Under the pieces are notes generated by a model. It worked only from the letters and a program-made list of their open reading frames with translations. It did no database searches and was not told where the DNA came from. 64,000 nt of DNA from Escherichia coli (GTDB lineage: Bacteria; Pseudomonadota; Gammaproteobacteria; Enterobacterales; Enterobacteriaceae): assembly GCF_029227855.1 (NCBI RefSeq), contig NZ_CP074356.1. One strand, written 5' to 3'. Positions 1 through 40,726 of the stretch are shown here, one piece after another; the stretch's first letter is position 1, and each line of letters starts with the position of its first letter. The position numbers and the translations under genes were made by a program.

Positions 1-1
1 G

Positions 2-307
2 GTCGGCCTGCAGTTGGATTGTCGAGAACTGCCCGATTATCTACCGCTGTATCTGGAGTACTTAAGCGTACTACCGGACGATCAGGCGAAAGAAGGCTTG
101 CTCAACGTTGCGCCGATCCTCGCCCTGCTTGGCGGACGCTTAAAACAACGCGAGGCACCGTGGTACGCGTTATTTGACACCCTGTTGCAACTGGCAGGAA
201 GTACACTTTCAAGTGACAGTGTCACAAAACAGGTGAACAGTGAGGAGCGCGATGACACCCGCCAGGCTGGATGCGGTGTGGGAAGAGGAACAGGTGAAGT
301 TTATTGA
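2..307 (+). CDS. narW: Nitrate reductase 2 assembly chaperone NarW, 3' portion (5' end lies outside window); upstream frame terminates at 307
   Basis: Open frame from window edge with NarJ/NarW-like sequence (LPDYLPLYLEYLSVLPDD...); immediately upstream of narV. See finding on 3' frame discontinuity. Confidence 0.75.
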   Translation, partial: VGLQLDCRELPDYLPLYLEYLSVLPDDQAKEGLLNVAPILALLGGRLKQREAPWYALFDTLLQLAGSTLSSDSVTKQVNSEERDDTRQAGCGVGRGTGEVY

Positions 308-412
308 AGATAACGCCACGGCGTGTGACAGCTCGCCGCTTAATCAATATCAGCGACGCTTTAGCCAGAATGTCGCGCCGCAGTATGTCGACATCAGTGC
401 GGGAGGTGGGAA

Positions 413-1093
413 ATGATTCAGTATCTGAACGTCTTTTTTTATGATATCTACCCGTACATTTGTGCGACAGTGTTTTTCCTCGGCAGCTGGCTGCGCTACG
501 ACTACGGGCAGTATACCTGGCGCGCCTCCTCGAGTCAGATGCTCGATAAACGCGGGATGGTGATATGGTCGAATCTGTTCCATATCGGCATTTTGGGGAT
601 TTTCTTCGGGCACCTGTTCGGCATGTTAACGCCGCACTGGATGTACGCGTGGTTTCTGCCGGTGGCGGTAAAACAGCAGATGGCGATGGTGCTCGGTGGT
701 ATTTGCGGTGTATTGACGCTGATTGGCGGCGCAGGACTGCTGTGGCGCAGGCTGACAAATCAGCGCGTGCGTGCCACTTCCACTACGCCGGATATTATCA
801 TCATGATCATTTTGCTGATTCAGTGTCTGCTAGGGCTAAGTACCATACCGTTTTCAGCACAGTATCCTGATGGTAGCGAAATGATGAAGCTGGTGGGTTG
901 GGCGCAAAGCATTGTCACTTTCCGTGGTGGATCGTCAGAAATGCTTAACGGCGTAGCGTTCGTTTTCCGCCTGCATCTGGTGTTGGGAATGACCATCTTC
1001 CTGCTCTTCCCGTTCACCCGACTGGTGCATGTGTGGAGCGCGCCGTTTGAGTACTTTACTCGTCGGTATCAGATTGTGCGCTCGCGGCGATAA
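413..1093 (+). CDS. narV: Respiratory nitrate reductase 2 gamma subunit
   Basis: 226-aa multi-helix membrane protein recognised as NarV/NarI family; ATG start; position after narW. Confidence 0.9.
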
Positions 1094-1171
1094 TTTCACC
1101 CTGGCCGGATAGCCCTTCGCTCTCCGGCCACTTGCAGGCTATGATAGTTCTCCAGTCACAGGAGAACGTTA

Positions 1172-2065
1172 ATGAAACCGCAGGTTTACCACGTCGATGC
1201 TTTTACCTCTCAACCATTTCGCGGCAATTCTGCCGGTGTTGTTTTCCCCGCCGATAATCTCAGTGAAGCGCAAATGCAGCTTATCGCCCGCGAATTAGGT
1301 CATTCCGAAACTGCTTTTCTGCTGCACAGCGACGACAGCGATGTGCGCATCCGCTACTTTACGCCAACAGTTGAAGTGCCGATTTGTGGTCACGCGACGG
1401 TAGCAGCGCATTATGTACGTTCGAAGGTATTAGGTTTGGGAAATTGCACGGTCTGGCAAACATCGCTGGCAGGAAAACACCGCGTGACTATAGAAAAGCA
1501 AAATGATGATTATCGTATTTCGCTGGAACAAGGTACTCCTGGCTTTGAGCTACCACTGACAGGTGAAACACGAGCGGCAATTATCAACGCGCTTCATCTC
1601 ACTGAAGACGATATTCTGCCAGGCTTGCCAATTCAGGTGGCTACCACAGGACACTCAAAAGTGATGATTCCACTGAAGCCGGAAGTGGATATCGACGCCC
1701 TTTCGCCTGACCTTAATGTGCTGACCGCTATCAGCAAACAGATTGGCTGCAATGGTTTCTTCCCGTTCCAGATCCGCCCAGGCAAAAACGAAACCGATGG
1801 TCGCATGTTCTCGCCTGCGATTGGTATTGTGGAAGATCCGGTGACCGGCAATGCCAATGGCCCGATGGGTGCATGGTTGGTACATCACAACGTATTGCCC
1901 CACGATGGCAACGTGTTGCGCGTTAAAGGCCATCAGGGGCGCGCATTGGGGCGTGACGGCGTGATTGAAGTGACGGTGACAATTCGCGATAACCAACCGG
2001 AGAAAGTCACCATTTCTGGCACAGCGGTGATTTTGTTTCATGCCGAATGGGCAATCGAATTCTGA
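1172..2065 (+). CDS. yddE: PhzF-family isomerase-like protein
   Basis: 297-aa ORF with GGAGA RBS 8 nt upstream; sequence recognised as YddE (PhzF superfamily). Confidence 0.9.
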   Translation: MKPQVYHVDAFTSQPFRGNSAGVVFPADNLSEAQMQLIARELGHSETAFLLHSDDSDVRIRYFTPTVEVPICGHATVAAHYVRSKVLGLGNCTVWQTSLAGKHRVTIEKQNDDYRISLEQGTPGFELPLTGETRAAIINALHLTEDDILPGLPIQVATTGHSKVMIPLKPEVDIDALSPDLNVLTAISKQIGCNGFFPFQIRPGKNETDGRMFSPAIGIVEDPVTGNANGPMGAWLVHHNVLPHDGNVLRVKGHQGRALGRDGVIEVTVTIRDNQPEKVTISGTAVILFHAEWAIEF

Positions 2066-2115
2066 AACCGTTGCCTGGTGCGCTTCTCTTATCAGGTCTA
2101 CAACCGAGCTAATGT

Positions 2116-2148
2116 ATGCCGGATAAGGCGTTTACGCCGCATCCGGCA
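2116..2148. repeat. REP (repetitive extragenic palindromic) element
   Basis: gccggataaggcgtttacgccgcatccggca imperfect palindrome typical of E. coli REP units in the yddE-nhoA convergent intergenic region. Confidence 0.6.
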
Positions 2149-2160
2149 ACCTGACATAAA

Positions 2161-3006
2161 TTATTTTCCCGCCTCCGGGTGCGTATCAAACGCCGCCATC
2201 ACCAGCGCTAACTCATCCACAGTAAAGCCATGTTTCACATCATCCACGCCCAGACCAAACTGTTCCTGCATCACGGCATATAACGACGCCACATCTGGTA
2301 GATTTCGCTGTTCCACCGCGTGCCCATTTTCATAATGGGTAAAATGAAAATTGGTCAGCGTTAGCTTGCCGCCGTCCGGCAAATGGCGGCACATCAGCAA
2401 ATGATGGCGAAAATGCGACTGTGGCCAGTGCGCCGACCAGAAATTGCCCATCACATAATCGCTTTGTTGCTGCTCGCAGAGATCAAAACGGTACATCGAC
2501 TGCCAGTGCTGATGATGATTAAACTGCAACACCCAATCATCACCCTCCTGTAACAACCGATACTCTCCGTGTGGCGTGATCTGCACGAGATCGGGAACTA
2601 AACGAATCGGCGCGGTTAGCGTCTGTCCACCGAAACCGACATCAGCAATCCATTTTTCCCCTTCCAGTTCCACCAACAGTAAACGATGGGTGCGCGGCGG
2701 CAATGCTGGCGGATTTGATAACACTACACGACCTAACAAGCTGCGAACGTTAAACCCCAGCTCGCGTAACACCCGCTCAAACACGCCATTCTGCTCAAAA
2801 CAGTAACCGCCACGACGGGCTGTCACCAGTTTCTCTTCCAGCGATTGATCATCAAGCTGTATTTCCCTCGGCAGCAAAACGTCGAGGTTTTCAAATGGAA
2901 TGGTGCAATTGTGTTTCAGGTGCAATGCACGCAGCGTATCAATATTGGCCGCAGCAGCTCCCAACCAGTTAATACGGGCAAAATAGTGATTCAGAATGGG
3001 CGTCAT
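2161..3006 (-). CDS. nhoA: Arylamine N-acetyltransferase (N-hydroxyarylamine O-acetyltransferase)
   Basis: 281-aa ORF recognised as NhoA/NAT family. Confidence 0.9.
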   Translation of the reverse strand: MTPILNHYFARINWLGAAAANIDTLRALHLKHNCTIPFENLDVLLPREIQLDDQSLEEKLVTARRGGYCFEQNGVFERVLRELGFNVRSLLGRVVLSNPPALPPRTHRLLLVELEGEKWIADVGFGGQTLTAPIRLVPDLVQITPHGEYRLLQEGDDWVLQFNHHQHWQSMYRFDLCEQQQSDYVMGNFWSAHWPQSHFRHHLLMCRHLPDGGKLTLTNFHFTHYENGHAVEQRNLPDVASLYAVMQEQFGLGVDDVKHGFTVDELALVMAAFDTHPEAGK

Positions 3007-3180
3007 CAGGCGTTTCCCTTAGTGGTTTTCTCAACTTATAACCTGGAATAGACGCCGCACTGGCTATTTTGTGCGATCGCGGACATGCATCACGTTCGCA
3101 AATCGCCAATCCCGTTAATTTCGTTACTTATTGCGTTACGAGCTACGCTTTTAAAACACCCTTCATAGCGAGGCGATATC

Positions 3181-3750
3181 GTGAGCCAATTCATTCCCGT
3201 CGAATTACACCATGCCAGCCGTCTGTTAAATCATGGCCCAACTGTCATGATCACCAGTTTCGATGAGCAATCCCAGCGGCGTAACATTATGGCAGCAGCC
3301 TGGTCAATGCCGGTGGAGTTTGAACCGCCACGCGTGGCGATTGTGGTAGATAAATCGACATGGACCAGGGAGTTGATTGAACGTAATGGTAAGTTTGGCA
3401 TCGTTATCCCGGGTGTTGCAGCAACTAACTGGACGTGGGCGGTGGGAAGTGTGTCGGGGCGTGATGAAGATAAGTTTAATTGCTATGGTATTCCGGTTGT
3501 GAAAGGTCCGGTGCTTGGTTTGCCGCTGGTCGAGGAAAAATGTCTGGCGTGGATGGAGTGTCGCCTGCTACCTGCAACTTCCGCGCAAGAAAAATACGAT
3601 ACGCTATTTGGCGAAGTGGTATCTGCAGCGGCAGACGCACGAGTATTTGTCGAAGGCCGCTGGCAGTTTGATGATGACAAACTCAATACGTTGCATCATT
3701 TAGGTGCTGGCACGTTTGTTACCAGCGGCAAGCGTGTTACGGCAGGTTAA
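3181..3750 (+). CDS. yddH: Flavin reductase-like domain protein
   Basis: 189-aa ORF recognised as YddH; synteny. Confidence 0.85.
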   Translation: MSQFIPVELHHASRLLNHGPTVMITSFDEQSQRRNIMAAAWSMPVEFEPPRVAIVVDKSTWTRELIERNGKFGIVIPGVAATNWTWAVGSVSGRDEDKFNCYGIPVVKGPVLGLPLVEEKCLAWMECRLLPATSAQEKYDTLFGEVVSAAADARVFVEGRWQFDDDKLNTLHHLGAGTFVTSGKRVTAG

Positions 3751-3753
3751 GCA

Positions 3754-3981
3754 TTACATGCTGTAACCGGGTTTCTTTATCAAAGCCTCCATTTGGGGCT
3801 CGATTTCGGCATCCCAGATAGCTTGCCAAGATTCTGGTTGAATCTGCTGTAGAGAAATGCTTATCGAGCTATCTTTACTGTTCAGATGGCGAATAATAAC
3901 GTCGGTAATATCTGCAGCAAGTGCTGCTTTTTGTTGTTCGTCCAGTTCACGCGGAAAACATTTAATGTCTATGTGCGGCAT
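3754..3981 (-). CDS. pptA: Tautomerase PptA (4-oxalocrotonate tautomerase family)
   Basis: Start at MPHIDIK (N-terminal Pro after Met is the tautomerase catalytic signature); 75 aa; longer ORF-track version adds a non-native N-terminal extension. Confidence 0.85.
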
Positions 3982-4286
3982 GATTGTGCTCCTTTTGAAA
4001 GATGTCAGTAAAATTAACACACGTTGTGAATGTCGTGTGTCCGGTAATGCGTTTTTACGGCAATAATGCCTACTTGAAATTGTACATATTTGTACTACAC
4101 ACTTTTAAATAAAGCGCCAATGAAAACGTTAACTTGCAGAATATATTCTTCGCCAACATGCCATTAAGAAAACATCAAGTTCCCGGCTTGCCAATTTGTT
4201 AACGCCCATTATAGTTATTCTTGCCCTCACTAAAAATTTTCATCCGTAATTACCCCCAATAAAAATCCATTCTGGAGACGCTTAAG

Positions 4287-6263
4287 ATGCAGCTTAATCA
4301 TATCGTTAAAAGTCTGCTAATAACGGGATTATTCACCACCAGTTCTTTACCTCTCCTCGCGGCGGAAGCTCCTAAAGACGCCACCGCAGCCACGCAACAA
4401 GCAAACAATTTACTCTACAACCAGTTGCCGTTTGCCGATAACACTGACTTTACTGATGCCCATAAAGGTTTTATTGCCCCTATCCCTCAAGACGTGATTA
4501 AGGGCGAACAAGGGAATGTTATCTGGGATCCACAACATTACGCTTTTATCAAAGAAGGCGATAAAGCCCCTGATACGGTGAATCCGAGTTTATGGCGTCA
4601 GGCGCAACTGATAAATATCAGCGGGTTATTCGAAGTAACTGAAGGTGTCTATCAGATTCGCAATCTCGATCTATCAAATATGACCATCATTGAAGGCAAA
4701 GAGGGTATTACCGTCGTTGATCCCCTTGTTTCAGCAGAAACAGCCAAAGTGGGTATGGATCTCTATTACAAAAATCGCGGCAAAAAACCGGTAGTGGCGG
4801 TTATCTATACACACAGTCATGTCGATCACTACGGTGGTGTTCGTGGCGTAATTGATGAAGCTGACGTTAAATCAGGCAAAGTTAAAATCTATGCGCCAGC
4901 CGGATTTTTGGAGGAAGCCGTTTCCGAAAACATCATGGCTGGCAATGTTATGAGCCGACGAGCCAGTTATATGTATGGCAACTTATTGAAACCTGATGTT
5001 AAAGGCCAGGTGGGGGCTGGACTGGGAACGACTACTTCAGCAGGAACAGTCACGTTGATTGCTCCTACTAACTACATCACCAAAACCGGACAAAAAGAAA
5101 CTATTGACGGGTTGACTTATGATTTCCTGATGGCGCCAGGTTCTGAAGCGCCTTCTGAAATGCTGTGGTTTATTGAAGAAAAGAAACTGATCGAAACCGC
5201 TGAAGATGTCACGCACACCCTTCATAACACCTATTCGCTGCGTGGGGCTAAAATTCGCCAACCGCTGCCGTGGTCAAAATATATTAATGAAGCTCTCAAT
5301 TTGTGGGGTGATAAAGCCGAGATTATTCTCGCTCAACATCACTGGCCAACCTGGGGCAACGATAACGTGGTCAAACTGCTTAAAAGCCAGCGTGATTTGT
5401 ATCGTTACATCAATGATCAAACTCTGCGCATGGCTAATCAAGGGATGACCCGTGATGAAATTGCCGCAAACTTTAAACTGCCCTCTTCACTGGCTAACAC
5501 CTGGGCGAATCGCGGCTATTACGGTTCGGTAAGTCATGACGTGAAAGCAACTTACGTGCTTTATCTCGGCTGGTTTGATGGTAACCCCGCGACGCTTGAT
5601 GAACTGCCGCCAGAAGAAGGCGCAAAAAAATTCGTCGAGTATATGGGCGGTGCTGATGCCATTTTACAGAAAGCCAAACAGGATTATGACCAGGGTAATT
5701 TCCGCTGGGTTGCCCAAGTTGTTAGTAAGGTGGTGTTTGCCGATCCAAACAACCAGGCAGCGAGAGATCTGGAAGCTGATGCGCTTGAGCAGTTAGGCTA
5801 TCAGGCTGAATCTGGGCCGTGGCGTAATTTCTATCTCACTGGTGCACAGGAATTGCGTAATGGCGTACAAAAATTACCAACACCAAATACTGCCAGCCCA
5901 GACACCGTGCGTGCGATGACGCCGGAGATGTTCTTTGATTATCTTGCCGTCCATATTAATGGTGAGAAAGCGGCAGATGCCAAAACCGTGTTGAATTTCG
6001 ATTTTGGTGAAGATGGCGGCACCTATAAAGTGGAGCTTGAAAATGGTGTTCTCAATCATACCGCTGGTGTAGAGGCTTCGGATGCTGATGCCACTATCAC
6101 TCTGTCTCGTGATGTATTGAACAAAATTGTACTGAAAGAAGAGACGCTGAAAGAAGCCACGGCCAAAGGAGATGTCAAAATTACTGGCAATGAGGAAAAA
6201 CTCAACGAGCTGTTAGGTTATATGGATAATTTTGAATTTTGGTTCAATATAGTGACACCATAA
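4287..6263 (+). CDS. Secreted YjcS/SdsA1-like alkyl (aryl) sulfatase, metallo-beta-lactamase fold
   Basis: 658 aa; N-terminal signal peptide (LLITGLFTTSSLPLLAAEA); THSHVDHYGG metal-binding motif; RBS GGAGA upstream. Accessory relative to the K-12 gene order as remembered. Confidence 0.8.
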   Translation: MQLNHIVKSLLITGLFTTSSLPLLAAEAPKDATAATQQANNLLYNQLPFADNTDFTDAHKGFIAPIPQDVIKGEQGNVIWDPQHYAFIKEGDKAPDTVNPSLWRQAQLINISGLFEVTEGVYQIRNLDLSNMTIIEGKEGITVVDPLVSAETAKVGMDLYYKNRGKKPVVAVIYTHSHVDHYGGVRGVIDEADVKSGKVKIYAPAGFLEEAVSENIMAGNVMSRRASYMYGNLLKPDVKGQVGAGLGTTTSAGTVTLIAPTNYITKTGQKETIDGLTYDFLMAPGSEAPSEMLWFIEEKKLIETAEDVTHTLHNTYSLRGAKIRQPLPWSKYINEALNLWGDKAEIILAQHHWPTWGNDNVVKLLKSQRDLYRYINDQTLRMANQGMTRDEIAANFKLPSSLANTWANRGYYGSVSHDVKATYVLYLGWFDGNPATLDELPPEEGAKKFVEYMGGADAILQKAKQDYDQGNFRWVAQVVSKVVFADPNNQAARDLEADALEQLGYQAESGPWRNFYLTGAQELRNGVQKLPTPNTASPDTVRAMTPEMFFDYLAVHINGEKAADAKTVLNFDFGEDGGTYKVELENGVLNHTAGVEASDADATITLSRDVLNKIVLKEETLKEATAKGDVKITGNEEKLNELLGYMDNFEFWFNIVTP

Positions 6264-6275
6264 ATTTACTGCATA

Positions 6276-6301
6276 CCGGGCAGGTATCCTGCCCTTTTTT
6301 G
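6276..6301 (+). terminator. Rho-independent terminator after sulfatase gene
   Basis: GC stem gggcagg-tat-cctgccc followed by T-run (tttttt). Confidence 0.7.
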
Positions 6302-6309
6302 GTTAAAAA

Positions 6310-7407
6310 ATGGCTGAACGAAGAAAAACTCATCACTCATGGAAAACCCGCCGCAATATGGTTATTCGCGGCATGACGATTAGTTTGCCATGGTTTGCTT
6401 TTATCAATGTCAGTTTTGCATTGATAATTTTGCTGCGCCGTGTTCTGTTTAATGACCTTACTCCACCCTGGTTAAATGAAAAAAGCCTTATACATTCTAT
6501 TGATATATCTGCAACGGGTATTCTGCTGATTTGCAGTGGTTTACTACTCATCCCTCGGCAAAAAACATTACCTATCCAGGTGCTATTAGTTGCCCTGAGC
6601 CTGCTATGGTCATGGTGTAGTTATCACTTTATTGCGTACTGGACGCTGCAGTTTGCTTATCCACTATGTGTATTATTAATGCTTAGTGGCGTTGTCGCAA
6701 TTTATTTCCATACCCCATCATTGCTCGCATTTGTCATTCCCTTATGGTTCACCACTCCAATAGCGAGTCTTATGCTTAATCAACAGATCAATATTCATTT
6801 TGCTGTTGTATGGTGTATTTTTTCACTGGCGCTATATGGTGGGCGACTCATTTTGTTACGTTGGTTTGAAGAAGCATGGGTACAAAACAGTTATAACAAC
6901 CAGTTAATTAATCGCCTTGATGCATTAGCACATCGTGCTCCTTTAACTGGGATAGCAAACCGACGTGCAATGAACAGTATCTTACACGACACGATGGATA
7001 ACGGCGGGTCATTTGCTCTTATTATGCTGGATGTCGATTTTTTTAAACGTTACAACGACACTTACGGGCATCCTGCTGGGGATCGTTGTCTAATACAAGT
7101 TGCCGACGCTCTACAGCGTTCAACTCGCCAGTCGGAGGATGTTGTTGTCCGTTATGGTGGCGAAGAGTTTGCCATCATACTTTTTAATGCAACATTGCCG
7201 GAAGCAGAGACGGTAGCAGCCAGAGTGAAGCAAGAACTTAAACTGGCAGCTATCCCACATCAGGCATCTGCTGTTAATGCATTCGTTACGGTTAGTCAGG
7301 GGATTACCTGTTCTGCTCCCGCAAAAACGGCTGAACAAATTATTTCAGATGCCGACGCTGCGTTATACCGGGCGAAAGAAAGTGGGCGAAATCGATGGGC
7401 TTTATAA
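6310..7407 (+). CDS. Membrane-anchored diguanylate cyclase (GGDEF domain, intact GGEEF active site)
   Basis: 365-aa ORF; N-terminal half has multiple hydrophobic helices, C-terminal half has the RYGGEEF motif. Exact start uncertain (alternative ATG at 6358). Confidence 0.75.
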   Translation: MAERRKTHHSWKTRRNMVIRGMTISLPWFAFINVSFALIILLRRVLFNDLTPPWLNEKSLIHSIDISATGILLICSGLLLIPRQKTLPIQVLLVALSLLWSWCSYHFIAYWTLQFAYPLCVLLMLSGVVAIYFHTPSLLAFVIPLWFTTPIASLMLNQQINIHFAVVWCIFSLALYGGRLILLRWFEEAWVQNSYNNQLINRLDALAHRAPLTGIANRRAMNSILHDTMDNGGSFALIMLDVDFFKRYNDTYGHPAGDRCLIQVADALQRSTRQSEDVVVRYGGEEFAIILFNATLPEAETVAARVKQELKLAAIPHQASAVNAFVTVSQGITCSAPAKTAEQIISDADAALYRAKESGRNRWAL

Positions 7408-7480
7408 GCATTAGGGGACTGGACAGATTACGTCTCTCCTCGCTTAACAAGGGCTGACGGAGGGTAATAATTGTCTATAG

Positions 7481-8032
7481 CTATCTTCTTAGCGATGTCT
7501 TTCTGGTATCACATTGGGTCGGTGCAATTATTTTTCCTTTAATACCCATTATGTTAAGAAATTCAGAAACAGCTGTAATCTCATTGTTTTTTTCATTCGT
7601 CTTGATCTTCCAAGGAATCTGACTGTGCATTATTGAGAACACACTAATAACGTGAATCGCTCCCTTGCGACGACTCTTGTCATAAGAGTACCGGAGCGTT
7701 TTTCCATCAATTGCAATGACGTCTTTATCATCTGAAGAATGGCAGTCAAGCATCCAGTTAATAAAGCACTCATGAAATTTTTCAGGACTGATACAGGATA
7801 CAACTCTGGCAATGGTATCGTGAACAGGAATACCATTATCAAAATCACCATATTGCTTCAAAAAATCGAGATGTGTTTCCCCAAAATCCTCTATATCTTC
7901 CCAGCCTTCTGCACCCGAAATAATGGCACAAATAGTCAACAGTAGAATATCCGATAATTTATGTTCCACTTTCCAGGCTTGTCTGTAATCGGGGGTAATA
8001 GAAATATGTTCCATCAATTTTTTAAATTCCAT
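7481..8032 (-). pseudogene. Truncated H-repeat-associated (ISAs1-family) transposase, N-terminal 5' fragment
   Basis: 183-aa ORF about 85 percent identical over roughly 170 aa to the N-terminus of the intact H-rpt ORF at 14075..15211, then diverges and terminates; shared upstream flank as well. Confidence 0.8.
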
Positions 8033-8617
8033 TTTGTTCTCCTTAATTATGTAAGGAGTATTTGATCATGTATAAGCAATAAAAAACAGCTTTAGGTAAT
8101 GAGGAATATCTCAATTTTTAAACATAAAATGCGAATTATTTAGTACAAAAAAGCAGCGTTACGTGATCTTTCCGTGGATCGTCAAATTGTTCGAGAGAAA
8201 ATACCAACATGATGGATTTTACTGTAAAAGTAATGTCGTAGTTTAAAAACTCATCATCCGGTAAAGCCTTGTGGGGCGTGGGCTTTCATACTTTTACCCT
8301 GATGTCTGCTATACGCCGGACACCCTTTACGTAGCATTCGGAATTCACCCGTAAATTTATCACGGCGGTATCACGAAACCTCCGGTTCTGATGCCGCTTA
8401 GGACTAACGACACGTCAACACAGGTTCGGGTTTATTCATTTCACTGTATCTCATATAATCTGAGCACTCCCCCTGCGCTCGCTACTATGACTCTTTACCA
8501 CAGCAACCGGGGTTGTTTGGGATCGGCTTTCAACAGCAGATCCCGGTGGCTATTGCAAGTAAGTCTACTTTCCACATCAGTGTTACTGACACAGAAAATA
8601 ATGAGTTATGATCCTTG

Positions 8618-9103
8618 TCATATTTTTAATATAGCCCCATGAGCTATAGGATCAAAACCTTCTAACCATGAGGTGTTTTTATCGAATAATGCACCTGTTA
8701 TATTTATATCGCCATATCTATCACATAATAAATTAGCGCCACATAAGTCAGCACCAGAAAAATTTGAATCTTTAACGTCTGCATTGCAAAAGGTTGAATT
8801 AGTTAATATAGCACCCTCAAAGTTTGCACCTATTGACCTTGAATTACTAAAGTCACTTCCAGTGAAATCTGAGTTATTAAGAATAGCGTTCATCAGAGCC
8901 GCATTGCGAAAGACAGCATTTCTAGTTGATGTATGTTGAATCATTACATTTCTTAAATGGGAATTTTCAAATTTCGCCCCATCAAGACAATAACCATTGA
9001 GGATGGCACGATGTAGATCCATCCCGCTAAAATCATATCCAGCAAGAGTGGTACTATCTATATCAAGAAATTTATTGGTTATTAAAAACGCGATTCTTAT
9101 CAT
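8618..9103 (-). CDS. Pentapeptide-repeat protein, predicted Rhs immunity protein (positional equivalent of K-12 ydcD)
   Basis: 161 aa; about 20 consecutive A(D/N)(L/F)xx-type pentapeptide repeats ([15 protein letters not shown] ... [15 protein letters not shown]); start codon overlaps the rhs stop in ATGA arrangement; AT-rich. Confidence 0.8.
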
Positions 9104-12100
9104 CTATTCCCCCAATCATCTAACTCCGGAAAAATTTGGCTAAACGGATATAGTGGTGCCGATAATGGACGCGTACCTGGCCGCTCAGGAGGAAGTTTAT
9201 CACATAACAGACCCGCAACCATCCTGTGATTACCATTAACAATCACATTCCCATCCATATCAACCGGTGGTGCTCCACTACCATCTTCCAGCATTTGTAC
9301 GTAGTGAGCTACTACGGGTACTGAGACTTTTTGTTGTACTGTCAACAAGGGACTGTTGGCCACAACCATCCTGATGTTTTCAGGTGTCGCAGGTAAACAT
9401 TTAGTCTTCTCTTGACTAAAGGTATCATCCCACAATTTTGTTAAACCCATCACTGCCTGTTGTCTGTATTTATCCATGGGGTCAGCAATCAACCAAGATG
9501 GACCTGACTGCTCTATGGAATCTTCTCCGGAGAGACCCAACGGATCTATCTTAGTAGTTGGATTCAATGGATACTGATACAGGTTCCATGCACCTCTTAG
9601 CCCAATGGGATCCTGGGTGATATACCGCCCCTGCAACGGGTCATAGTACCGGTTGCGGTTATAGTACAGCCCCGACTCCTCATCATACTGCTGCCCCGGC
9701 AGACGGTACGGCTGTTGCAGTTGCTGCGCGCTGGTTTCGCCCAGCAGGTTTCCCCACTCGTCATACTCCCCCTGCCACGCCGTTTCCCCTACCGGGCTGA
9801 TGAGCGCCTGCGGCAGCCCCCGGTGGTCGCAGTGGTAAAGATGAAGTGTCCTCTCCGGGATGTATTCCGCCTCCATCTGGTTTTTCATCTGTTCCGCCGT
9901 CAGCCCGCACTGCTGAAGCCATGCCTCACTCTCCGCACTCACCGCACCCGCGCGCAGTTCCCGCTCCAGCCTCCCCAGCATCACCGACAGCTCCGCCGGT
10001 AGCGTCACCCCCGTGTCCTCCTGCAACACCTCCGCCAGACTCCGGTGCCGCGCCTTCGCCTGTTCACCATTCTCTGTTTCGATTCTGATGAGCGGCGTGA
10101 AGCTCCCCGGCTGGTATACCGTCTGGATACGCGTGGTGCCGGTCTGTACCGTCGTCAGCCTGTCACCGTCCCACCCGTACCAGGTCTCCTCCGGTTTACG
10201 CGACAGCGACATCCACCCCGTCAGGTCACGCTCCCGCCGCCACACCCGTTTCCCCGTCCGGCGGCCCAGCGGGTCATAGAGGTAGCGGCTCTCCACCTGT
10301 GGTTCGCCGTGCTGTATCCGCGTGTAGAACACCAGGCGGTGCTGGCTGTCGTAATGGTAGTGGTGGGTCCGCTCGTCGTGCATCCGGATAACCCCTTCCG
10401 GGATACGATCCGTCTTCTCCGCCAGCCTGCCGTATTCATCGTGGCGGTAGACATAGTGCGCATCCTCCGCGATGCGGTTATCCGGCCACGCCGTGAAGGT
10501 GCTGTCCGGGTGCAGTTCCGGGTCCGGCAGCCGGTTTCCTGCCGGGTCCGTCGCATACGGGATATCGATATCCAGGTTCGCCGCCGTGGTGTGAACGCCC
10601 GTCAGTCTTCCCGTGTCGCTGTAACGGTACTTCCGGCTCTCCTGCGGGCCGCTGATGCGCACCAGTTGCCCGTTATCGTTCCACGTATACTCACGGTCAA
10701 GCTGCGGAAGGTTCAGGTGCCTGCTCCGGAGCTGCCCTGTGAGGGTGTACGCCATGGCCTGTTCGTACCCCGCTGTACTGCCCGCCCCGCCGAAGCTGCG
10801 GGCCGTCTCACGGTGCAGCCGGTCCCGCGTGTACTCGACCAGCGGCGTTCCGCCCAGCTTCATCCCCGCAAGATAACCGCTGCCATACGTCAGCCACTCC
10901 ACCGGCGGCAGACCGTCCGGCTCCTGACGGGTCGCCAGCCCCTGTTCGCTGTAGACGTGCCTCGTCTCATGCTCCCACAGCATCTCCCCCGTCTCCTGGT
11001 TCTCCACCGTCTGCCGTTCGCCCGTCAGGCGGCCTTTATCGTCATAGCCGTAGTGGACCGCCACACGGTGGCCTTCGCTCAGGTGGCTGATTTCTGTCAG
11101 CCAGCCGTGGTCGTCATACTGCCACTGCTCCGCCGGGTCGCCGTTCACCGTCCGGTGCGTGATGCGCCCGGCGTCATCGTAGTACCACTGCGTGACCTGC
11201 CCCTCATCCTCGCTGCGGATGAGCTGCCCTGTGGCGCTGTACCGGTAACGCTGTGTCCTGCCGTCAAAGCCGCGCTGCTCCGTCAGCCTGTCCACCGGGT
11301 CATACCGGAACGTGGACTGGCTGCCGTTCTCGTTGGTCAGCACGGTGATGCGCCCGGCGGCGTCATACTCCATGCTGCGCGTCAGTCCGCCCTGCGTGGT
11401 GCTGACGGCCTTTCCCCACGCATCATACTGTGTCTCACTCCGGCTGCCGTTCGGGGCAATGATAGCGGTGAGGTCGCCTGCGGCGCTGTACTCATAACGG
11501 GTTTCACGTCCCTGCGCATCCTTCTGACTGACCAGTTGACCACGCGGGTTATAACTGCTGTAAGTGCTGATGCCTTCCTCCCGGTGAACCGCCGTCCTCT
11601 GACCGTACCGGTCGTATTCATACCGCGTCGTGTACCCTGAACAGTCCGTAAATGCCTGAAGCTGACCGTACCGGTTTCGCGTTATTCTCCGCCTCACCCC
11701 GGTTCCGTCTTCCACCGCACAGGGCAGGCCACTGCGGGAAGAATCATAAAACCAGCGCGTAATGTTACCGTTGCGCGAGACCTCTTCCGCCAGCCTGCCC
11801 TGACGGTCATATTTCCGGCTGCGGCGCAGCCCGTCCGGGTACGTCACTGACGTCAGTTGCAACTGGTTGTTGTAACCATACCGTACCGTCCTGCCGTCCG
11901 GCAGTATCACTGAAGTCAGCTTTCCCGACGCCATATGCAGCCGGTACTCCGTCCGCCGTCCCGCCGCATCCGTCTGCGCCTTCAGCCTCCCCGCCTCATC
12001 ATACTCGCTGCGGGTGATGCTCCCGTCCCCATGCTCCTTCTTCACCACCCGCTTCAGGCCGCCCTCGCCCTCCGTGTACAGCACCTCCCGCCGGTTCAGG

Positions 12101-13311
12101 CTGTCCGTGATGGTCACGCGGTCCTGCCCGTACTCAAAGCGGTAGTCCAGCCCCTCCGGGTTGACCTGCTCCGTCACCCGACCGGTATCATCATACCGGT
12201 AGCGGCTCTCCGGCCTCCCCGCATAATGGTGCGCCACCATCCGCCCGGCGTGCTCCGCATCATAAGTAAACCCGCGCACCTGCGTCCCGCTGCGGTCATA
12301 CACCGCCCGCAGTTCTCCGCTGGCCGTGTACGTGTAGCGCGCCAGCGGCGCAGTCGGCAGTTCATCCAGGTATGCCAGGTCGTGTGTCAGCCATACCGCC
12401 TCCAGCCGGATACCGTTATCGGCACCGTACTCTGTACCGGTGGGCAGCGTGTCGGGGAAAACCTGAGAAGAGGAAACAGAACGGGGACTGGCCGGAGAAG
12501 ATAAAGAAGAGGCGCGCTGTTTACGGAAGGCTTTCGCCCGCTGCGCCTGTGTGGTCAGCGCCAGATGAAAACGGCGGCCCGCGCCGTCCGTCACCCCCGT
12601 CACCGCGCCCGCCGCTTCCCCCTCTGCCGCCCGGTGGAAGGCCAGCGTCCGCCCGAAGCTGTCCACCACGCCCGTCAGCACCCGGTATGCGGGCGGCTCC
12701 GGCGGCAGCACCTCGTCCGCCTCCGGCACCCGCTCCGGCCAGCCGAGTATCCACCACGGCCCCTGAAGGCTGTTTGTCGCCAGGTACACATGCGGGCTTA
12801 AGCGGAGACTCTCCGGCAGCACCTGCCAGAGCGCGCTTAGCGGCTGCGAACTGTGCTGCTCCGCCACCCCGCCCCTTGCCAGCCAGAACGACTCGCTGCG
12901 GCTGTAGCTTATCTCGCCGGGAAACAGCGGCTCAAAGTGAATGCTCCTGCCGCCACTGTCGTTGAGTATCAGTTCCCGCTCATGAACCTGTAAGCGGATA
13001 TCGAAGGGCGCTTTCCAGCCGGGACCAAACACCCCCACCGGCGCGGGTGTTCTGGTCCGGTAGCTGCTGTAGGCGCGGGAAAGAATAAACGGCAACGGGC
13101 CGGGCAGCGCAAGATCCGTCTCGCCCGGCAGCACCTTCGCACCCAGTAGCGGGTTCACCGGGTTACCCTTCTGCTCCTCCACCGGGCTGTTGGGACACAC
13201 CGAGCAGGCCACTCCCGTCGGCGCACCTATCAGCACCCCCGCTGAACCCTGCACAATATCCAGTCCCTTGCGGGTCATATCGCCCTGTCGCGCCGCCGGT
13301 TTTCCGCTCAT
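9100..13311 (-). CDS. Rhs polymorphic toxin, full length (PAAR-like N-terminus, YD-repeat core, variable C-terminal tip with ParB-like motif)
   Basis: 1403 aa; N-terminus [11 protein letters not shown]; long GC-rich YD-repeat core; core-end DPxGL motif (..DPIGL..KIDPLGL) followed by an AT-rich roughly 143-aa tip (about 9100..9531). Confidence 0.9.
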
Positions 13312-13731
13312 GGTTTATTCCTTAAATTATTTATGGTTTTATTCTGAGTGCAATCCATACTGATTCATAACCAGTGAATAAGATTTCCCCGAATAATCTA
13401 TATAAATTAGCGAAGTCCTCTTCACTAATTAACCGTAAAATCCCGTACCAATGAAATATAAAAATAACCACCCACACAAATTTATTGCAAATATTATTCA
13501 TTATTGTATATACATCATTCACTGAACGTTCTCAAACTGCATACCTTAGAACCATCAATTAAAGCCACAACAAAAAAATCGATTACTTTATGTCGCATGA
13601 CAAATATGAATTACATATTAATCAACCTTAAAAACAATCATCTCTTATAATTAACAGCATACCATGAGAAACACAAAATCAATTTACCATGCATACCAGG
13701 AGCATAATTAACCTCTCACCGCAGGGCGAAA

Positions 13732-14097
13732 TCATGAAGGCCCGCAGCCAGCAAGGATTAGAGAAAGGTATTCATTCTTACGTCCTGCCCGCTTTTGCTT
13801 GCGTTTAATACCCGCTTTAAAGCTATTCTCTGCGGTCAGTAAATTCATCGCGATATGTCGACAAACTGCCAGATTTTCTCCCGCTTCTCCACGAACAATC
13901 TGGCATTCATCTTCCCGCATCCCCATATCAAGTCGCCAGTGCAGTTGATTTTCTACCGACCAGTGTGCTCGTGTTGCTTCCAGGAGTTCTTTCGCCGTAA
14001 GCGTCACCGAACTTATGTAGTAGCGAAGAATACACTTCTCTGATTTCACCGCTGTTTCTCCTTCCAGGGCAAGATTACGAAAGCCCGCTCCCCGCAA
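13732..14097 (-). pseudogene. H-repeat (ISAs1-family) transposase C-terminal fragment, diverged copy
   Basis: 121-aa ORF whose C-terminal 95 aa align to the C-terminus of the intact H-rpt protein (HWxVENxLHWRLD motif). Confidence 0.65.
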
Positions 14098-15211
14098 GGA
14101 CTGACGCCAGATAGTTTCTGTCCATGGCTGCTTTTCGCATCTTACGTCTTAACCCTGCCTTGAATACCTTATCATTCGTTAAAATATTAATAGCGATGTG
14201 CCGTATCCCTGAAAATAATTCTGCGGCGTTTCCTCTTCCTATTTTGCAGTCGTCTTCATTCATTACCACGTCCAGACGCCAGTGCAGCTTATTCTCCACG
14301 TGCCAGTGGTTTCGGATTGCTGTGGCGAACTTCTCTGCGGTTAAATCAGCAGAACTGATATAATATCTGACCGTCATTTCTGGCTCTTTCTTTTGTTCTG
14401 CTATTATTGACCGAAAGGAGACTGCCACGCATAATTTCTTCAGTCCTTTCCATTCAAACATTAAATCAATAAGTTCATCAGGGACATCACAAACAATGTG
14501 AAGACGGATTTCTTCTCTGCCGTGACTCTTTTCACTAATTGCGTAACTGTCATGCTCTGGATTATTTAATTCTTTCAGTGGGAATTTTTCCTCAAAGGCT
14601 TTATTTAGCCGCCCCTGGTTTCCTTTTACAGCGAATAAATAATCACCTCCCTGTTTTTGTATCTTCTCTGCAATATCTTTCTGGCAACCCATCGCATCAG
14701 TTGTGATGATTTTTCCTTTAATATCCAGCATGTTAAGAAGTTCAGGGATAGCTGTAATTTCATTTGATTTCTCATCCGTCCTGATCTGTCCGATGACCAG
14801 ACTGTGCATTGTTGAGAACGCACTAATGACATGAATCGCTCCCTTGCGGCGACTCTTGTCATAAGGATGCCGGAGTGTTTTTCCATCAATTGCGATGACG
14901 TCTTTATCAGCTGAAGAATGGCAGTCACGCATCCAGTTAATAAAGCACTCGTGAAATTTTGCAGGACTGATACAGGATACAACTCTGGCAATGGTATCGT
15001 GAACAGGAATACCATTTTCAAAATCACCATATTGCTTCAAAAAATCGAGATGTGTTTCCCCAAAATCCTCTATATCTTCCCAGCATTCTGCACCAAAAAT
15101 AACGGCACAAATAGTCAACAGTAGAATATCCGACAATTTATGTTCCACTTTCCAGGCTTGTCTGTAATCGGGGATAATAGAAATATGTTCCATCAATTTT
15201 TTAAGTTCCAT
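14075..15211 (-). CDS. H-repeat-associated protein / ISAs1-family transposase (intact)
   Basis: 378 aa, recognised as E. coli H-rpt (YdcC/YhhI-like) protein. Confidence 0.9.
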
Positions 15212-15487
15212 TTTGTTCTCCTTAATTATGTAAGGAGTATTTGATCATGTATACGCAATAAAAAACAGCTTTAGGTAATAAGGAATATCTCAATTTTTAA
15301 ACATAAAATGCGAATTATTTAGTACAAAAAGTGAACTTCTGATGATCTTTCCCTGCCCATTGGGTTCATTAAGATCAAGAATAATGGGAATATGCTCAAG
15401 AAGACTTTGAATGTTCACCAGACGTCCTTTTCTAATATATTTAATTATTTGGCGATTAAATTTTAATCAAATCAACAAGGTAAAACC

Positions 15488-15525
15488 AAGATTAAAGTTG
15501 TGATGATAATCACAACTTTAATGAT
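15488..15525 (-). terminator. Hairpin downstream of Rhs copy-2 immunity gene (putative terminator)
   Basis: 14-bp perfect stem attaaagttgtgat/atcacaactttaat with a 4-nt loop; a short U-run follows on the minus strand. Confidence 0.45.
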
Positions 15526-15557
15526 CTTCCCCTGATTCCTCCAGTCCTTTTATTTGG

Positions 15558-15932
15558 TTACTCTAATGGTTTTATTAATTGTAAATTTTTAAATGTCATG
15601 CTTAATAAGCCATCAGAAAAATAAAGAAAAAATTTATATATCCTTTTGTTTTTTAATTTCTTTATATACCCATTACTTATATTACCTGACTTGTGATTAT
15701 CGATTAACTCAGCAGAATCCATAGCGAACACTAAATCATCTACATCAGAAAATTCAACTATCATTTTTTCCCTAATGTTCTCATTTTTATAAATGTCAAT
15801 AAATAACGTCATGTTAAAATGAGATTCTTTGAATGTCGTTTTTACTTCTAACAAAACCCCATCATGCCAGTCAATTGAACTCACAATGTCAAAATCGCTC
15901 ATTATATAATCTCCATTATCCGTTTTAATCAT
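15558..15932 (-). CDS. Predicted immunity protein for Rhs copy-2 toxin (hypothetical, AT-rich)
   Basis: Start chosen at MIKTDNGDY so that ATG overlaps the toxin stop (ATGA coupling); very AT-rich; no recognisable domain. Longer alternative start at 15965. Confidence 0.6.
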
Positions 15933-20088: not shown

Positions 20089-20154
20089 GATTCAATTCCT
20101 TCTTCTGTTTATTTTTAATGCTTGTTTGTTACTGAATACCGAACAGGTACGGGA

Positions 20155-22263: not shown

Positions 22264-23369
22264 AGCAACCTCCGTGAAAATGAATAATAATCCGCACATA
22301 TTGCATGTACAACATGTCGGGCGGATGAGATAAGCGAGTCGACATCTGGCGTTACCGGGGAATATCAAAAAAATGTCATGGTTATGTGATGATTTAGTCT
22401 GGGATTTTACTTCAGAGAAACGGGTGTCTGTTTAGTCAACAAAATAATCACAAACGCAACGGATGGGTTCTCGACGTTATTCACGACAGGCTCGTACATT
22501 ACAGCGAGTAATAAAAACCTGATATGCAAAGTCAAACCAATATTCATAATGTCTTTTTATTCACAACAATAAATAATTCAATAACAATCATTGAAATGAA
22601 TGATGGTTTGTATAAGGAATATACGCTACCGCCCCACCCTGATAACATGATCTGCACATTGCCATCTTAACGTCGTTAAACACTGGCTTAATAGTGGATA
22701 TTTAAAATTAGGAATTTATTAAATTCACCTGATGAATATCATAAGCAAATAGCATAGAAAATAATGACAACTCCCCCGAGGGGACCATTTCCAAAGCACT
22801 GCACCACCACCTGGTGCCCGGATGATCTTGCTTCAGTGGTAAGAGTACCTGATTCATTGTTCCCAAAATGGTGTTTTCCCGGGCCCCTCCAATAATGTGC
22901 AACTCTCACGTGATAATCTATTGATTAGGTTATATTAAGAATCAATATTTGAAATACATCCATTTTCTTGAATAAATCAACATGTTTATTTATCAATTGC
23001 TGTTTTAGCTCTGACTCATCAAGCTCTCCATATTTGTCCTACAGATAATCGCGAATAAATACAGAGAACGCCATTTATCCTTTTAGCATACCTGCCGGAT
23101 ATTTTTATTTGTATTAATATTAATTGCATCTCCAACTCCGGGCATATCCATCATTAAAAACATTTTGAGATTATAGAATGCCTGTGATAACAACTGAAAC
23201 ATCTGCACAATGTGAATAGTTAGTTTCTTTTCAGAGGAAATGAAATAGACAAGCTGAATGAAAGGGAGAGTGATATAAATTAAAAAAATAACATGAATCT
23301 AATTAATTACGTCCATCATTGTGGATAAAGTTACTGAATAATAAATAACATAATCTTCTGGTATCCCAC

Positions 23370-23987
23370 TCAAATAATTTCATTCCTTTTTAATACTTCT
23401 TGTAATTTCGGTAACTGACATACAGCTTCAGCGATCGCGCTGATATTCTGCGCATTATCGTGAAACCATTCATGCCCCGGCCCCCATGTGCGCATGGTGC
23501 AGAGATAACAGTCCACCAGCGTTAGTTGCTCGCCAAAGGCATAAGGTTCAGCGGTCAATTGTGAATTCAGCCAGATATAAAGCGATTTACGATATTCAAT
23601 AACATTCTTCTTTAACTGTTCGGGTGCGTCAGGAGCCCAACGCTCAGGGTAATCGGCGAAAGTGAATGTTGGATAGACATTAGCAACCAGCCAGACCAAT
23701 AGCCGTTGAAACTGCTGACGTTCGGCGCGCCCAACCGGTGGCGCAAGGTCCGGGCGACGATCGAGAACCATCAATGCAATCGCCGCTGTCTCCGTCATAA
23801 TCTCGTCATTTTCCAGCGCCAGTGTCGGAATCTGACACAACGGGTTCAGGGTTTTCAATAACTCGCGTGAAGTTCCCTCGTGGTCAAAACCACTGACATC
23901 AACGAACTGATAAGGAATATCAGCCAGTGTTAGCATCAGCTCACTGATTGTAGAGCCCCATCCGGGTACGCCATACACCTTAATCAT
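23370..23987 (-). CDS. yncG: Glutathione S-transferase-like protein
   Basis: 205-aa ORF recognised as YncG (GST fold). Confidence 0.85.
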   Translation of the reverse strand: MIKVYGVPGWGSTISELMLTLADIPYQFVDVSGFDHEGTSRELLKTLNPLCQIPTLALENDEIMTETAAIALMVLDRRPDLAPPVGRAERQQFQRLLVWLVANVYPTFTFADYPERWAPDAPEQLKKNVIEYRKSLYIWLNSQLTAEPYAFGEQLTLVDCYLCTMRTWGPGHEWFHDNAQNISAIAEAVCQLPKLQEVLKRNEII

Positions 23988-32586: not shown

Positions 32587-32671
32587 ACTTTCTCCTTAGC
32601 CACTTGTGAAATTTATCGATTCATCCAAATGATATAAGTCTGCGTGGTGCCGTCAAGCCAGTGAGTAAGAT

Positions 32672-32845
32672 TTAAAACAGTGAAAACAACAGCGCCACCG
32701 GGAAACTCATCGGCCATGTTGCCCCCACCAGAAAGGCGCTTAAGAAACGGATGCGTTTCTTATCGTGAGAAAGAAACCAGGTGATAAGAAATGAGATTGC
32801 TGCCATAACCGCATAAAAAACAAGCATATGTTGATAGAGAGACAT
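32672..32845 (-). CDS. ortT: Orphan small membrane toxin OrtT (YdcX)
   Basis: 57 aa starting MSLYQHMLVFYAV..; single hydrophobic helix. Confidence 0.75.
   Translation of the reverse strand: MSLYQHMLVFYAVMAAISFLITWFLSHDKKRIRFLSAFLVGATWPMSFPVALLFSLF

Positions 32846-40309: not shown

Positions 40310-40726
<417 letters not shown>

Follow-up and report, generated by a model that had tools for sequence, protein, structure and literature searches.

The window analysed here is a stretch of 64,000 nucleotides from Escherichia coli (contig NZ_CP074356.1, assembly GCF_029227855.1), which carries two intact open reading frames on the same strand, 4287..6263 (658 aa) and 6310..7407 (365 aa), separated by 46 nt. 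The first encodes a predicted alkylsulfatase and the second is the cyclase gene dgcY, for which RefSeq uses an internal start at 6358 that gives a product of 349 aa. The first-pass annotation had placed both frames exactly here (4287-7407), between pptA and an Rhs island; the RefSeq annotation agrees, with pptA upstream and an ISAs1 fragment, Rhs and vgrG genes downstream. The features of the locus, with the source of each assignment, are the following:

3754..3981, minus strand: pptA (tautomerase), conserved left flank (RefSeq annotation)
3982..4286, no strand: AT-rich divergent intergenic region between pptA and the sulfatase gene, GC 0.367 (composition)
4287..6263, plus strand: sulfatase gene, with a putative Sec-type signal peptide at residues 1-25 (Pfam, PDB matches)
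6278..6300, plus strand: intrinsic terminator 3' of the sulfatase gene (terminator scan, folding energy)
6310..7407, plus strand: dgcY, MASE5-GGDEF diguanylate cyclase, alternative start at 6358 (Pfam, alignment, hydropathy)
7400..7488, no strand: short tail beyond dgcY (junction sequences, blastn)
7481..8032, minus strand: truncated ISAs1 (H-rpt) transposase fragment, left edge of the vgrG/Rhs island (RefSeq annotation)
23369..23986, minus strand: yncG, conserved right flank (RefSeq annotation)

The vgrG/Rhs/ISAs1 island extends over about 7400-23368 (16 kb) and includes the ISAs1 fragment, two Rhs core genes and vgrG. It is absent from E. coli SMS-3-5 and from the loci L003 and L086, where, as in island-free E. 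coli, dgcY directly adjoins yncG. The GC content of the sulfatase gene (0.458) and of dgcY (0.434) is lower than that of narV, yddE, nhoA and yddH (0.51-0.52), as the first-pass annotation had said of the flanking genes; pptA (0.434) and mcbR (0.438) are, however, as low as the pair. The pair lies below the Escherichia genome mean in GC, which would also be compatible with its arrival in the genus by an old transfer.

Judging from its domains and conserved residues, the product of 4287..6263 is a type III (metallo-beta-lactamase fold) primary alkylsulfatase similar to SdsAP and SdsA1. Pfam recognises Lactamase_B, Alkyl_sulf_dimr (E = 1e-62) and Alkyl_sulf_C (E = 3e-44), that is, the metallo-beta-lactamase catalytic, dimerisation and SCP2-like C-terminal domains of type III alkylsulfatases, an architecture that confirms the alkyl sulfatase first proposed here. 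In SdsAP the binuclear zinc centre is held by the HxHxDH motif, two glutamates and one histidine, and the specificity for primary alkyl chains depends on Tyr246 and Gly263 (PMC5426288); all nine metal, catalytic and specificity residues are kept in the window sulfatase (H176, H178, D180, H181, E287, E306, H351, Y230 and G247). The alignment with SdsAP of Pseudomonas sp. S9 (PDB 4nur) covers the full length with 1036 bits, and SdsA1 of Pseudomonas aeruginosa (2cfu) has the same three-domain signature; these enzymes differ in host and genomic context from the window sulfatase, which is known from its sequence. PDB matches also include 4pdx and 7tl5, an unnamed structural-genomics entry that is the nearest solved chain. 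A candidate signal peptide, recognised by eye from its n-, h- and c-regions, is MQLNHIVKSLLITGLFTTSSLPLLAA, with EAPKD following a cleavage site between LAA and E, and the crystallised homologues begin at residues 26-29. The sulfatase would thus be a periplasmic, binuclear-zinc enzyme that most likely cuts primary alkyl sulfates, for example SDS, to the alcohol and sulfate; SDS hydrolysis is proposed because SdsAP, a relative with 73% similarity, carries out this reaction. In NCBIfam neither this protein nor DgcY has a specific model, and the only matches were generic GGDEF and metallo-beta-lactamase models below cut-off.

The enzyme belongs to the same family as YjcS of E. coli K-12 (PDB 4pdx) and is of the same length, with 49% identity over 627 residues. 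This low identity, together with the location of K-12 yjcS elsewhere (between ytcA and alsK), rules out orthology, and the relationship, which had been left for a database comparison, is that of a paralogue. Its orthologues are EcSMS35_1714 and the Salmonella gene that also bears the name 'yjcS'.

The second protein consists of a MASE5 domain (PF17178, E = 4e-43; model positions 2-192 of 192, about 6382-6927) followed by a GGDEF domain (E = 3e-46; positions 4-161 of 161, about 6937-7395). Six hydrophobic segments joined by short loops lie between residues 26 and 184 of the hydropathy profile and correspond to six predicted membrane helices, in agreement with the membrane GGDEF cyclase with a multi-helix domain described initially. 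The active-site motif is GGEEF; RYGGEEF is invariant among 14 orthologues, as are other GGDEF residues in the alignment, and the domain looks active. An RxxD site five residues before GG(D/E)EF mediates product inhibition. In DgcY the canonical form of this site is absent, given that in RQSED-VVVRY-GGEEF the arginine is one position out of register, and the orthologues likewise have R-x-x-x-D. DgcY would be predicted to make c-di-GMP in response to a signal perceived by its six-helix MASE5 sensor; sensing within the membrane is proposed because the predicted periplasmic loops are of 15 residues at most.

DgcY is reportedly the diguanylate cyclase of SMS-3-5 and CE10 in the E. coli pan-genome survey of Povolotsky and Hengge of 2016. 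The window protein is 98% identical to WP_000236738.1, the cyclase found at the same locus in SMS-3-5, and SalmoNet2 equates the SMS-3-5 cyclase with dgcY and the neighbouring gene with EcSMS35_1714 (bioRxiv 10.1101/2021.12.20.473597); the name given to 6310-7407 comes from this secondary citation and from the identity of the locus. DgcX, also an extra cyclase absent from K-12 and, like DgcT and CdgI (MASE4-GGDEF), a membrane-anchored GGDEF protein, was considered and ruled out as the identity of the cyclase: its MASE4 domain has eight helices, its RxxD site is intact, and its gene lies at attB beside lambdoid prophages, in contrast to the six-helix MASE5 domain, the lack of a canonical RxxD site and the fixed chromosomal slot of dgcY.

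Both the genes and their pairing are therefore already known, as dgcY and EcSMS35_1714 in E. coli (strains SMS-3-5 and CE10) and as yreP and 'yjcS' in Salmonella. In SMS-3-5 the order at the same locus is pptA, the sulfatase gene (WP_001176575.1), the GGDEF gene and yncG; both proteins are 98% identical to those of the window and the cyclase has the same MASE5-GGDEF architecture. The Salmonella sulfatase is an orthologue with 85% identity, and YreP is a MASE5-GGDEF protein with 47% identity to DgcY. The Salmonella genes are adjacent and diverge from a shared region of 285 bp, whereas the window genes are on the same strand, and their flanks (ydbK ... ttcA, dbpA region) differ from those of the window. 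Nothing further turned up in the literature on DgcY, MASE5 or yreP.

The gap between the two genes contains a hairpin, GGGCAGG-TAT-CCTGCCC, with a G+C-rich stem of 7 bp followed by TTTTTT (folding energy -13.5 kcal/mol, z = -2.4). This hairpin is kept in the loci L086, L003, L101 and L098 and in Escherichia albertii, and a different G+C-rich hairpin stands at the same place in the Enterobacter locus L006. The genes share a strand and a gap of 46 nt, as expected for a two-gene operon, but have this conserved terminator between them, so that mostly separate transcription is proposed, with read-through as a possibility. Upstream of the sulfatase gene, a candidate sigma-70-like site, TTGCCA-16-TATAGT (4188-4215, plus strand, 10 of 12 matches), is likely its promoter, in a scan that overall stood at chance level (12 sites against 10.0 expected from shuffles). 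For dgcY the same scan gave no convincing sigma-70 site between the terminator and either start codon, and the nearest one (6401-6428) lies within the gene. Rfam gave no match in 3600-8200, and hence no riboswitch or known sRNA there.

The first-pass annotation had proposed a functional unit made up of the two genes. In such a unit, the MASE5 domain of DgcY would sense alkyl sulfates or the fatty alcohol that the sulfatase sets free, and the level of c-di-GMP would increase and promote aggregation or a biofilm, with the sulfatase meanwhile clearing the detergent; expression may be coupled by read-through of the terminator or by a shared regulator. We regard such a unit as possible, although not as the likelier state of affairs. 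In its favour, the orthologous genes lie side by side in four genera (Escherichia, Enterobacter, Leclercia and Salmonella), with three different sets of flanking genes and in two relative orientations, and the sulfatases from Enterobacter, Leclercia and Salmonella are 85-87% identical to that of the window, as compared with 49% for YjcS. The genes are adjacent in Enterobacter hormaechei and Enterobacter asburiae, in Leclercia the order is tynA-sulf-DGC-feaB, and the Salmonella pair is head to head and reportedly has a regulatory region in common (SalmoNet2, bioRxiv 10.1101/2021.12.20.473597). Metagenome contigs were searched with a DNA motif of the MASE5-linker region, given that patterns from full-length alignments fell in the GGDEF domain and matched generic GGDEF proteins; among the 80 loci gathered, the sulfatase gene is upstream of all eight Escherichia-type cyclases and of 25 of the Enterobacter type, at a distance of 50-106 nt in the eight and in 24 of the 25 and with a gap of 484 nt in the remaining one. 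Moreover, the MASE5 domain, almost without periplasmic exposure, would suit the sensing of an amphiphile. As a functional precedent, work on the SiaABCD system of P. aeruginosa reports that exposure to SDS triggers a c-di-GMP-dependent aggregation through SiaA/D (PMC4768041); SiaD, however, is a soluble cyclase under a phosphorylation partner switch that lacks MASE5 and is not encoded beside sdsA1, unlike DgcY and its neighbouring sulfatase.

The conserved terminator that separates the genes speaks against this coupling, and so does the fact that each gene is found without the other: the cyclase lacks an adjacent sulfatase in 22 Enterobacter-type loci, in Enterobacter cloacae, Hafnia and Pantoea and in the L096 type, and the sulfatase occurs without the cyclase in Citrobacter and in E. 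albertii. The rates of evolution also differ strongly, to the point that the L101 sulfatase shares 98% identity with that of the window and the L101 DgcY only 80%, and neighbouring genes tend to remain adjacent by inertia alone. The evidence for a functional link is suggestive. A more specific version, in which DgcY perceives, within the membrane, alkyl-sulfate detergents or the long-chain alcohols released from them, as part of a conserved enterobacterial 'degrade and aggregate' module of detergent defence that Salmonella retains preferentially in invasive serovars, seems unlikely to us; the yreP/'yjcS' pair has been reported as associated with extraintestinal serovars (SalmoNet2, bioRxiv 10.1101/2021.12.20.473597).

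Among 5426 complete E. coli genomes, 438 (about 8%) have one chromosomal copy that covers 80% or more of window 4100-7500. The distribution over the pan-genome, raised as a check by the first-pass annotation, is therefore variable, and the presence in most E. coli that it had named as contrary to its proposal is not what was found. Its statement that K-12 has neither gene and continues from pptA into H-rpt genes was correct, since in MG1655 pptA is followed after 99 bp by ydcC (ISAs1). Most E. coli have an ISAs1 copy at a short and variable distance beyond pptA. Homology in pair-free E. coli stops at six or more different points, namely window positions 4356, 4214, 4070, 4031, 3861 and 3810 in end-point classes drawn from 60 records taken at even intervals among 4665, which represent neither a full tally nor a phylogeny. 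An ISAs1 copy or fragment follows four of the five end points examined (4356, 4070, 4031 and 3810), and SymE/Rhs remnants follow end point 4214. As the end points differ and mostly abut ISAs1, they indicate that repeated deletion has removed the pair from most E. coli.

The order pptA-sulfatase-dgcY is found in divergent Escherichia (L003, L101 and L098, with 89.6%, 91% and 83% nucleotide identity, respectively). The sulfatase occupies the same yddH...yncG slot, with 92-94% identity, in E. albertii, Citrobacter sedlakii and Citrobacter amalonaticus, and in a contig type as divergent as Citrobacter it is the cyclase alone that occupies it. At the other end of the pair, two junction types exist. 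In one, that of the window, dgcY ends in WAL and a stop codon and a conserved tail follows; this tail (7400..7488) is shared with divergent Escherichia contigs, up to 7488 in L101 and up to 7432 in L098, and in the window the 16-kb island follows dgcY. In the other, dgcY ends in WEK and a stop codon and abuts yncG, as in SMS-3-5, and homology of the window to the island-free SMS-3-5, KFu014 and L003 ends at 7399. Each type spans species-level divergence, and the order of change at the dgcY/yncG junction can be read either way.

It could be argued that the genes are decaying leftovers without a current function in the window strain, since most E. coli do without them, the sulfatase gene of L003 is frameshifted, the cyclase gene of one genome is interrupted by an IS, and another genome retains only internally deleted remnants of both genes. 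This explanation is very improbable in view of the integrity of both frames in the window and in the sampled genomes, the conservation of every catalytic motif, and dN/dS values far below 1 across large synonymous distances (sulfatase 0.03-0.09, DgcY 0.15-0.25); purifying selection acts on both.

Still less credible is the horizontal acquisition, by a minority of E. coli, of an islet at the pptA/Rhs junction, which would accord with the 438 carriers, with a GC of 0.43-0.46 against 0.51 in the flanks and with the adjoining mobile ISAs1/Rhs DNA, and which is already contradicted by the same gene order at the same locus in Escherichia with 9-17% nucleotide divergence and in island-free E. coli, by a synteny of each gene that reaches Citrobacter-level relatives, by the gene remnants in genomes that lack the genes, by a low GC that is common to E. 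albertii, and by the lack of a tRNA gene or noteworthy direct repeat at the pair and of an integrase among the adjoining annotated genes. The flanking repeats are short and at chance level, and from genus to genus the GC of the two genes varies with that of the host genome. The pair thus shows none of the hallmarks of a genomic island (integrase, tRNA target, direct repeats, absence from sister taxa), and the term accessory module, which implies acquisition, does not hold for it: divergent Escherichia have it at the same position, as expected of an ancestral segment.

We consider it quite probable, in consequence, that the locus holds two old chromosomal genes of Escherichia, mostly transcribed separately and not recently acquired, which constitute a pair that has already been described. 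According to this reading of two old genes, the ancestral order would be pptA-sulfatase-dgcY-yncG, the vgrG/Rhs/ISAs1 island would then have entered between dgcY and yncG, and deletions adjacent to ISAs1 would subsequently have removed the pair to varying extents in most lineages, leaving it in about 8% of the complete genomes.

Few c-di-GMP enzymes vary from one E. coli strain to another, and DgcY is one of them. If the genes are ancestral and have been eroded by deletions adjacent to ISAs1, the question becomes why some lineages keep the pair, and not what the strains that carry it have gained. Without a coupling of the two proteins the locus would be an ordinary, already catalogued, strain-variable pair. 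The adjacency across genera nonetheless leads to a concrete hypothesis, namely that alkyl sulfates or their alcohols are the signal of DgcY; if this coupling is true, it would provide a class of ligands for the uncharacterised MASE5 domain and would tie the chemistry of detergents and sulfate esters to the control of biofilm formation in enteric bacteria.

The window carries two intact genes between pptA and Rhs DNA, as the first-pass annotation had read them, and its gene calls were correct. The features of the locus are:

3754..3981, minus strand, pptA, left neighbour of the pair
4287..6263, plus strand, alkylsulfatase ORF, 658 aa, intact
6310..7407, plus strand, diguanylate cyclase ORF (dgcY), 365 aa, intact
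7400-23368, 16-kb island between dgcY and yncG

To the right of the pair there is an ISAs1 fragment, followed by two Rhs core genes, more ISAs1 copies, vgrG and yncH, and then yncG. In JNEC-KY178, the E. coli genome from which the annotation was taken and which is identical to the window over the stretches compared, the two genes are annotated as an alkyl/aryl-sulfatase and a GGDEF protein, the latter starting at 6358. The K-12 gene order given there is also correct: in MG1655, pptA is followed after 99 bp by the ISAs1 element ydcC, and neither gene is present. No tRNA gene or meaningful flanking repeat was found around the pair, nor any integrase among the annotated genes adjoining it. Farther along the window, a hicAB toxin-antitoxin pair (40309-40947), the orphan toxin gene ortT (32671-32844) and an IS200C transposase (49687 onward) are annotated.

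The pair had been taken for an accessory module. It is indeed strain-variable: in a search of 5426 complete E. coli genomes, with presence defined as at least 80% of window 4100-7500 covered, the stretch was found in 438, as a single chromosomal copy, and identity to 4100-7500 is at least 99% in 340 of the 534 genomes having any match. Records labelled plasmids account for one of the matches to the sulfatase-dgcY stretch and for 16 of those to the pptA junction. When the pptA-to-sulfatase junction was used as the query, 4652 E. coli genomes matched, and homology ended at window 4356, 4214, 4070, 4031, 3861 or 3810, depending on the genome. Among 60 matching records, sampled at even spacing, 4070 accounts for about half (K-12, O157:H7), 4031 for about a quarter and 3810 for about a tenth (ST131).

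Sequence that follows the end point of homology
K-12: ISAs1/ydcC
CLSC36: ISAs1, reached 70 bp into the sulfatase gene
UTAK-5: ISAs1 fragment
ST131: ISEc1, then directly ansP
EC12: SymE and Rhs remnants

Strain OkiPb01695 retains the final 39 sulfatase codons and both dgcY ends. Such gene scars, together with the several end points, indicate that the pair was repeatedly deleted, rather than repeatedly gained, in E. coli.

What did not stand is the acquisition that an accessory module implies: the evidence points to an ancestral pair, which occupies the same slot in divergent Escherichia, and the sulfatase is syntenic into Citrobacter. L003, a GTDB species representative labelled E. coli SCPM-O-B-8794 (89.6% nucleotide identity), is collinear with window 1-7399 and resumes at 23372; its order is pptA, a frameshifted sulfatase, dgcY and yncG. 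The pair is also present on the SRA/metagenome contigs L101 (91% identity) and L098 (83%, with pptA preceding the sulfatase); the E. albertii identity over this stretch, 85%, sets the scale. In that species pptA is followed by a sulfatase of 94% identity, the same terminator and Rhs DNA, with no cyclase. In Citrobacter sedlakii the order is yddH, sulfatase, yncG, and in C. amalonaticus it is yddH, two other genes, sulfatase, pptA; a contig type at ~75% identity has yddH, a cyclase (63% identical) and yncG, without the sulfatase. The order in contig L119 is yddH, cyclase, pptA, yncG, and in L092 sulfatase, then pptA. Since pptA lies downstream of the slot in Citrobacter-level relatives and upstream in Escherichia, the slot was rearranged locally.

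Low GC had been put forward as a mark of both genes. The values (sulfatase 0.458, cyclase 0.434) are indeed below those of narV, yddE, nhoA and yddH (0.51-0.52), but pptA and mcbR are equally low, and the GC of both genes tracks the host (Enterobacter/Leclercia 0.55-0.59, Salmonella 0.50, Citrobacter 0.53, E. albertii 0.44).

The island includes a truncated ISAs1, a pentapeptide-repeat protein, a Rhs core gene (9100..13311), two ISAs1 ORFs, a small ORF, the second Rhs core gene, vgrG and yncH; GC is 60-67% in the Rhs cores and 30-40% elsewhere in the island. A 531-aa ORF (10045-11640, plus strand), antisense within the G+C-rich Rhs core, is most likely a composition artefact. The whole island is absent from SMS-3-5, KFu014 and L003. 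Comparison of the dgcY 3' junctions (window 7390-7490; KFu014, L086, 9290-9310; L003 11080-11100; L101 3400-3490) revealed two types: WAL* followed by a conserved tail of 30-90 nt (window, L101, L098), and WEK*, whose stop codon touches that of yncG (SMS-3-5, KFu014, L003). Each is common to lineages at species-level divergence, and the outgroup ends WAR*. We conclude that the sulfatase and dgcY are probably long-standing residents of the slot, and the island an insertion.

The sulfatase has the type III alkylsulfatase triad (Pfam Lactamase_B, Alkyl_sulf_dimr, Alkyl_sulf_C/SCP2). Among solved structures the closest are 7tl5, an unnamed entry (1193 bits), and SdsAP of Pseudomonas sp. S9 (4nur, 1036 bits); E. 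coli YjcS (4pdx), Pisa1 and SdsA1 are the other best relatives. SdsAP hydrolyses SDS with a Km of 74 uM, using zinc ligands His192, His194, Asp196, His197, Glu303, Glu322 and His367 and specificity residues Tyr246 and Gly263 (PMC5426288). All 9/9 are kept in the window protein, at positions 176, 178, 180, 181, 287, 306 and 351, and at 230 and 247. Whether it is a yjcS paralogue had been raised as a check; it is, because identity to YjcS is only 49% and yjcS lies at a different K-12 locus. By inspection, its N-terminus resembles a Sec signal peptide with LAA|E at its end; the crystallised homologues start at residues 26-29.

The cyclase comprises MASE5 (residues 25-206, E = 4e-43) and GGDEF (210-362, E = 3e-46) domains (Pfam). 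Hydropathy gives six membrane segments (residues 26-184), a strongly basic N-tail and loops of at most 15 residues, and with such segments and loops the predicted sensor would be essentially intramembrane. No solved structure spans the whole MASE5, the best match, 8wcn, beginning at residue 127. An alignment of 14 orthologues shows no change in RYGGEEF or at the other catalytic positions, and the RxxD inhibitory site is shifted out of register (RQSED) in the window protein and in orthologues. The frame 5' of Met17 is open in Enterobacter and other Escherichia, with a conserved Trp/Arg pattern, which leads us to prefer 6310 over 6358 as the probable, though unproven, start.

Functional coupling of the two products is doubtful. 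A plausible, speculative form would be that MASE5 senses membrane-partitioning alkyl sulfates or their alcohols; a precedent is SDS-triggered, SiaD-dependent aggregation in P. aeruginosa (PMC4768041). In favour, a sulfatase orthologue (85-87% identity, YjcS having 49%) lies directly upstream of a MASE5-GGDEF orthologue (47-51%) in E. asburiae, E. hormaechei and Leclercia, where tynA and feaB flank the two genes; in Salmonella, a third context, they are arranged head to head across 285 bp. A search of metagenome contigs with a MASE5-linker DNA motif gave 80 loci, every one encoding a MASE5-GGDEF protein; the sulfatase is upstream in 8/8 Escherichia-type and in 25 Enterobacter-type loci (gap 69-106 nt in 24, 484 nt in one). 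An adjacent sulfatase is absent from the Hafnia-type (0/5), Pantoea-type (0/8, one at 3.9 kb) and L096-type (0/2) loci. Across the tynA-feaB interval of the Enterobacter complex (L105, L109, L006, L005 and about 50 metagenome loci, L110-L189), the MASE5-GGDEF gene is always present and the sulfatase is a presence/absence polymorphism (25 with, 22 without, tynA then lying directly upstream); two more loci, L129 and L183, have short sulfatase remnants.

Against coupling, the 46-nt intergenic gap is taken up by a hairpin (7 bp, G+C-rich; -13.5 kcal/mol, z = -2.4) and its T run, which all Escherichia loci have kept, with a different hairpin in the same place in Enterobacter; several lineages have one gene without the other; neighbours are also kept adjacent by inertia; and the genes evolve at unequal rates (dN/dS 0.03-0.09 for the sulfatase, 0.15-0.25 for DgcY). 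DgcY has diverged much faster than the sulfatase beside it: over L101 282-3410 the sulfatase is 98.3% identical to that of the window and DgcY 79.6%, the change being concentrated in MASE5 (dN 0.16 vs 0.05 in GGDEF); the values for L098 (1919-5047) are 94.8% and 76.2%. Synonymous divergence from KFu014 over window 4287-7404 amounts to 0.076 for the sulfatase and only 0.006 for dgcY, a difference that suggests recombination with a break between the genes.

The pair is already catalogued as dgcY and its alkylsulfatase neighbour: a passage of the SalmoNet2 preprint (10.1101/2021.12.20.473597, citing Povolotsky & Hengge 2016) gives Salmonella yreP as "dgcY in E. coli" and EcSMS35_1714 as the neighbour, both first described together in E. 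coli SMS-3-5 and CE10. The order in SMS-3-5 is pptA, sulfatase WP_001176575.1, GGDEF protein WP_000236738.1 and yncG, the two proteins being the same as in KFu014 and 98% identical to those of the window. To this description the present analysis adds the loss of the pair by ISAs1 deletion, the conserved terminator between its genes, and the reach and limits of their adjacency across genera.
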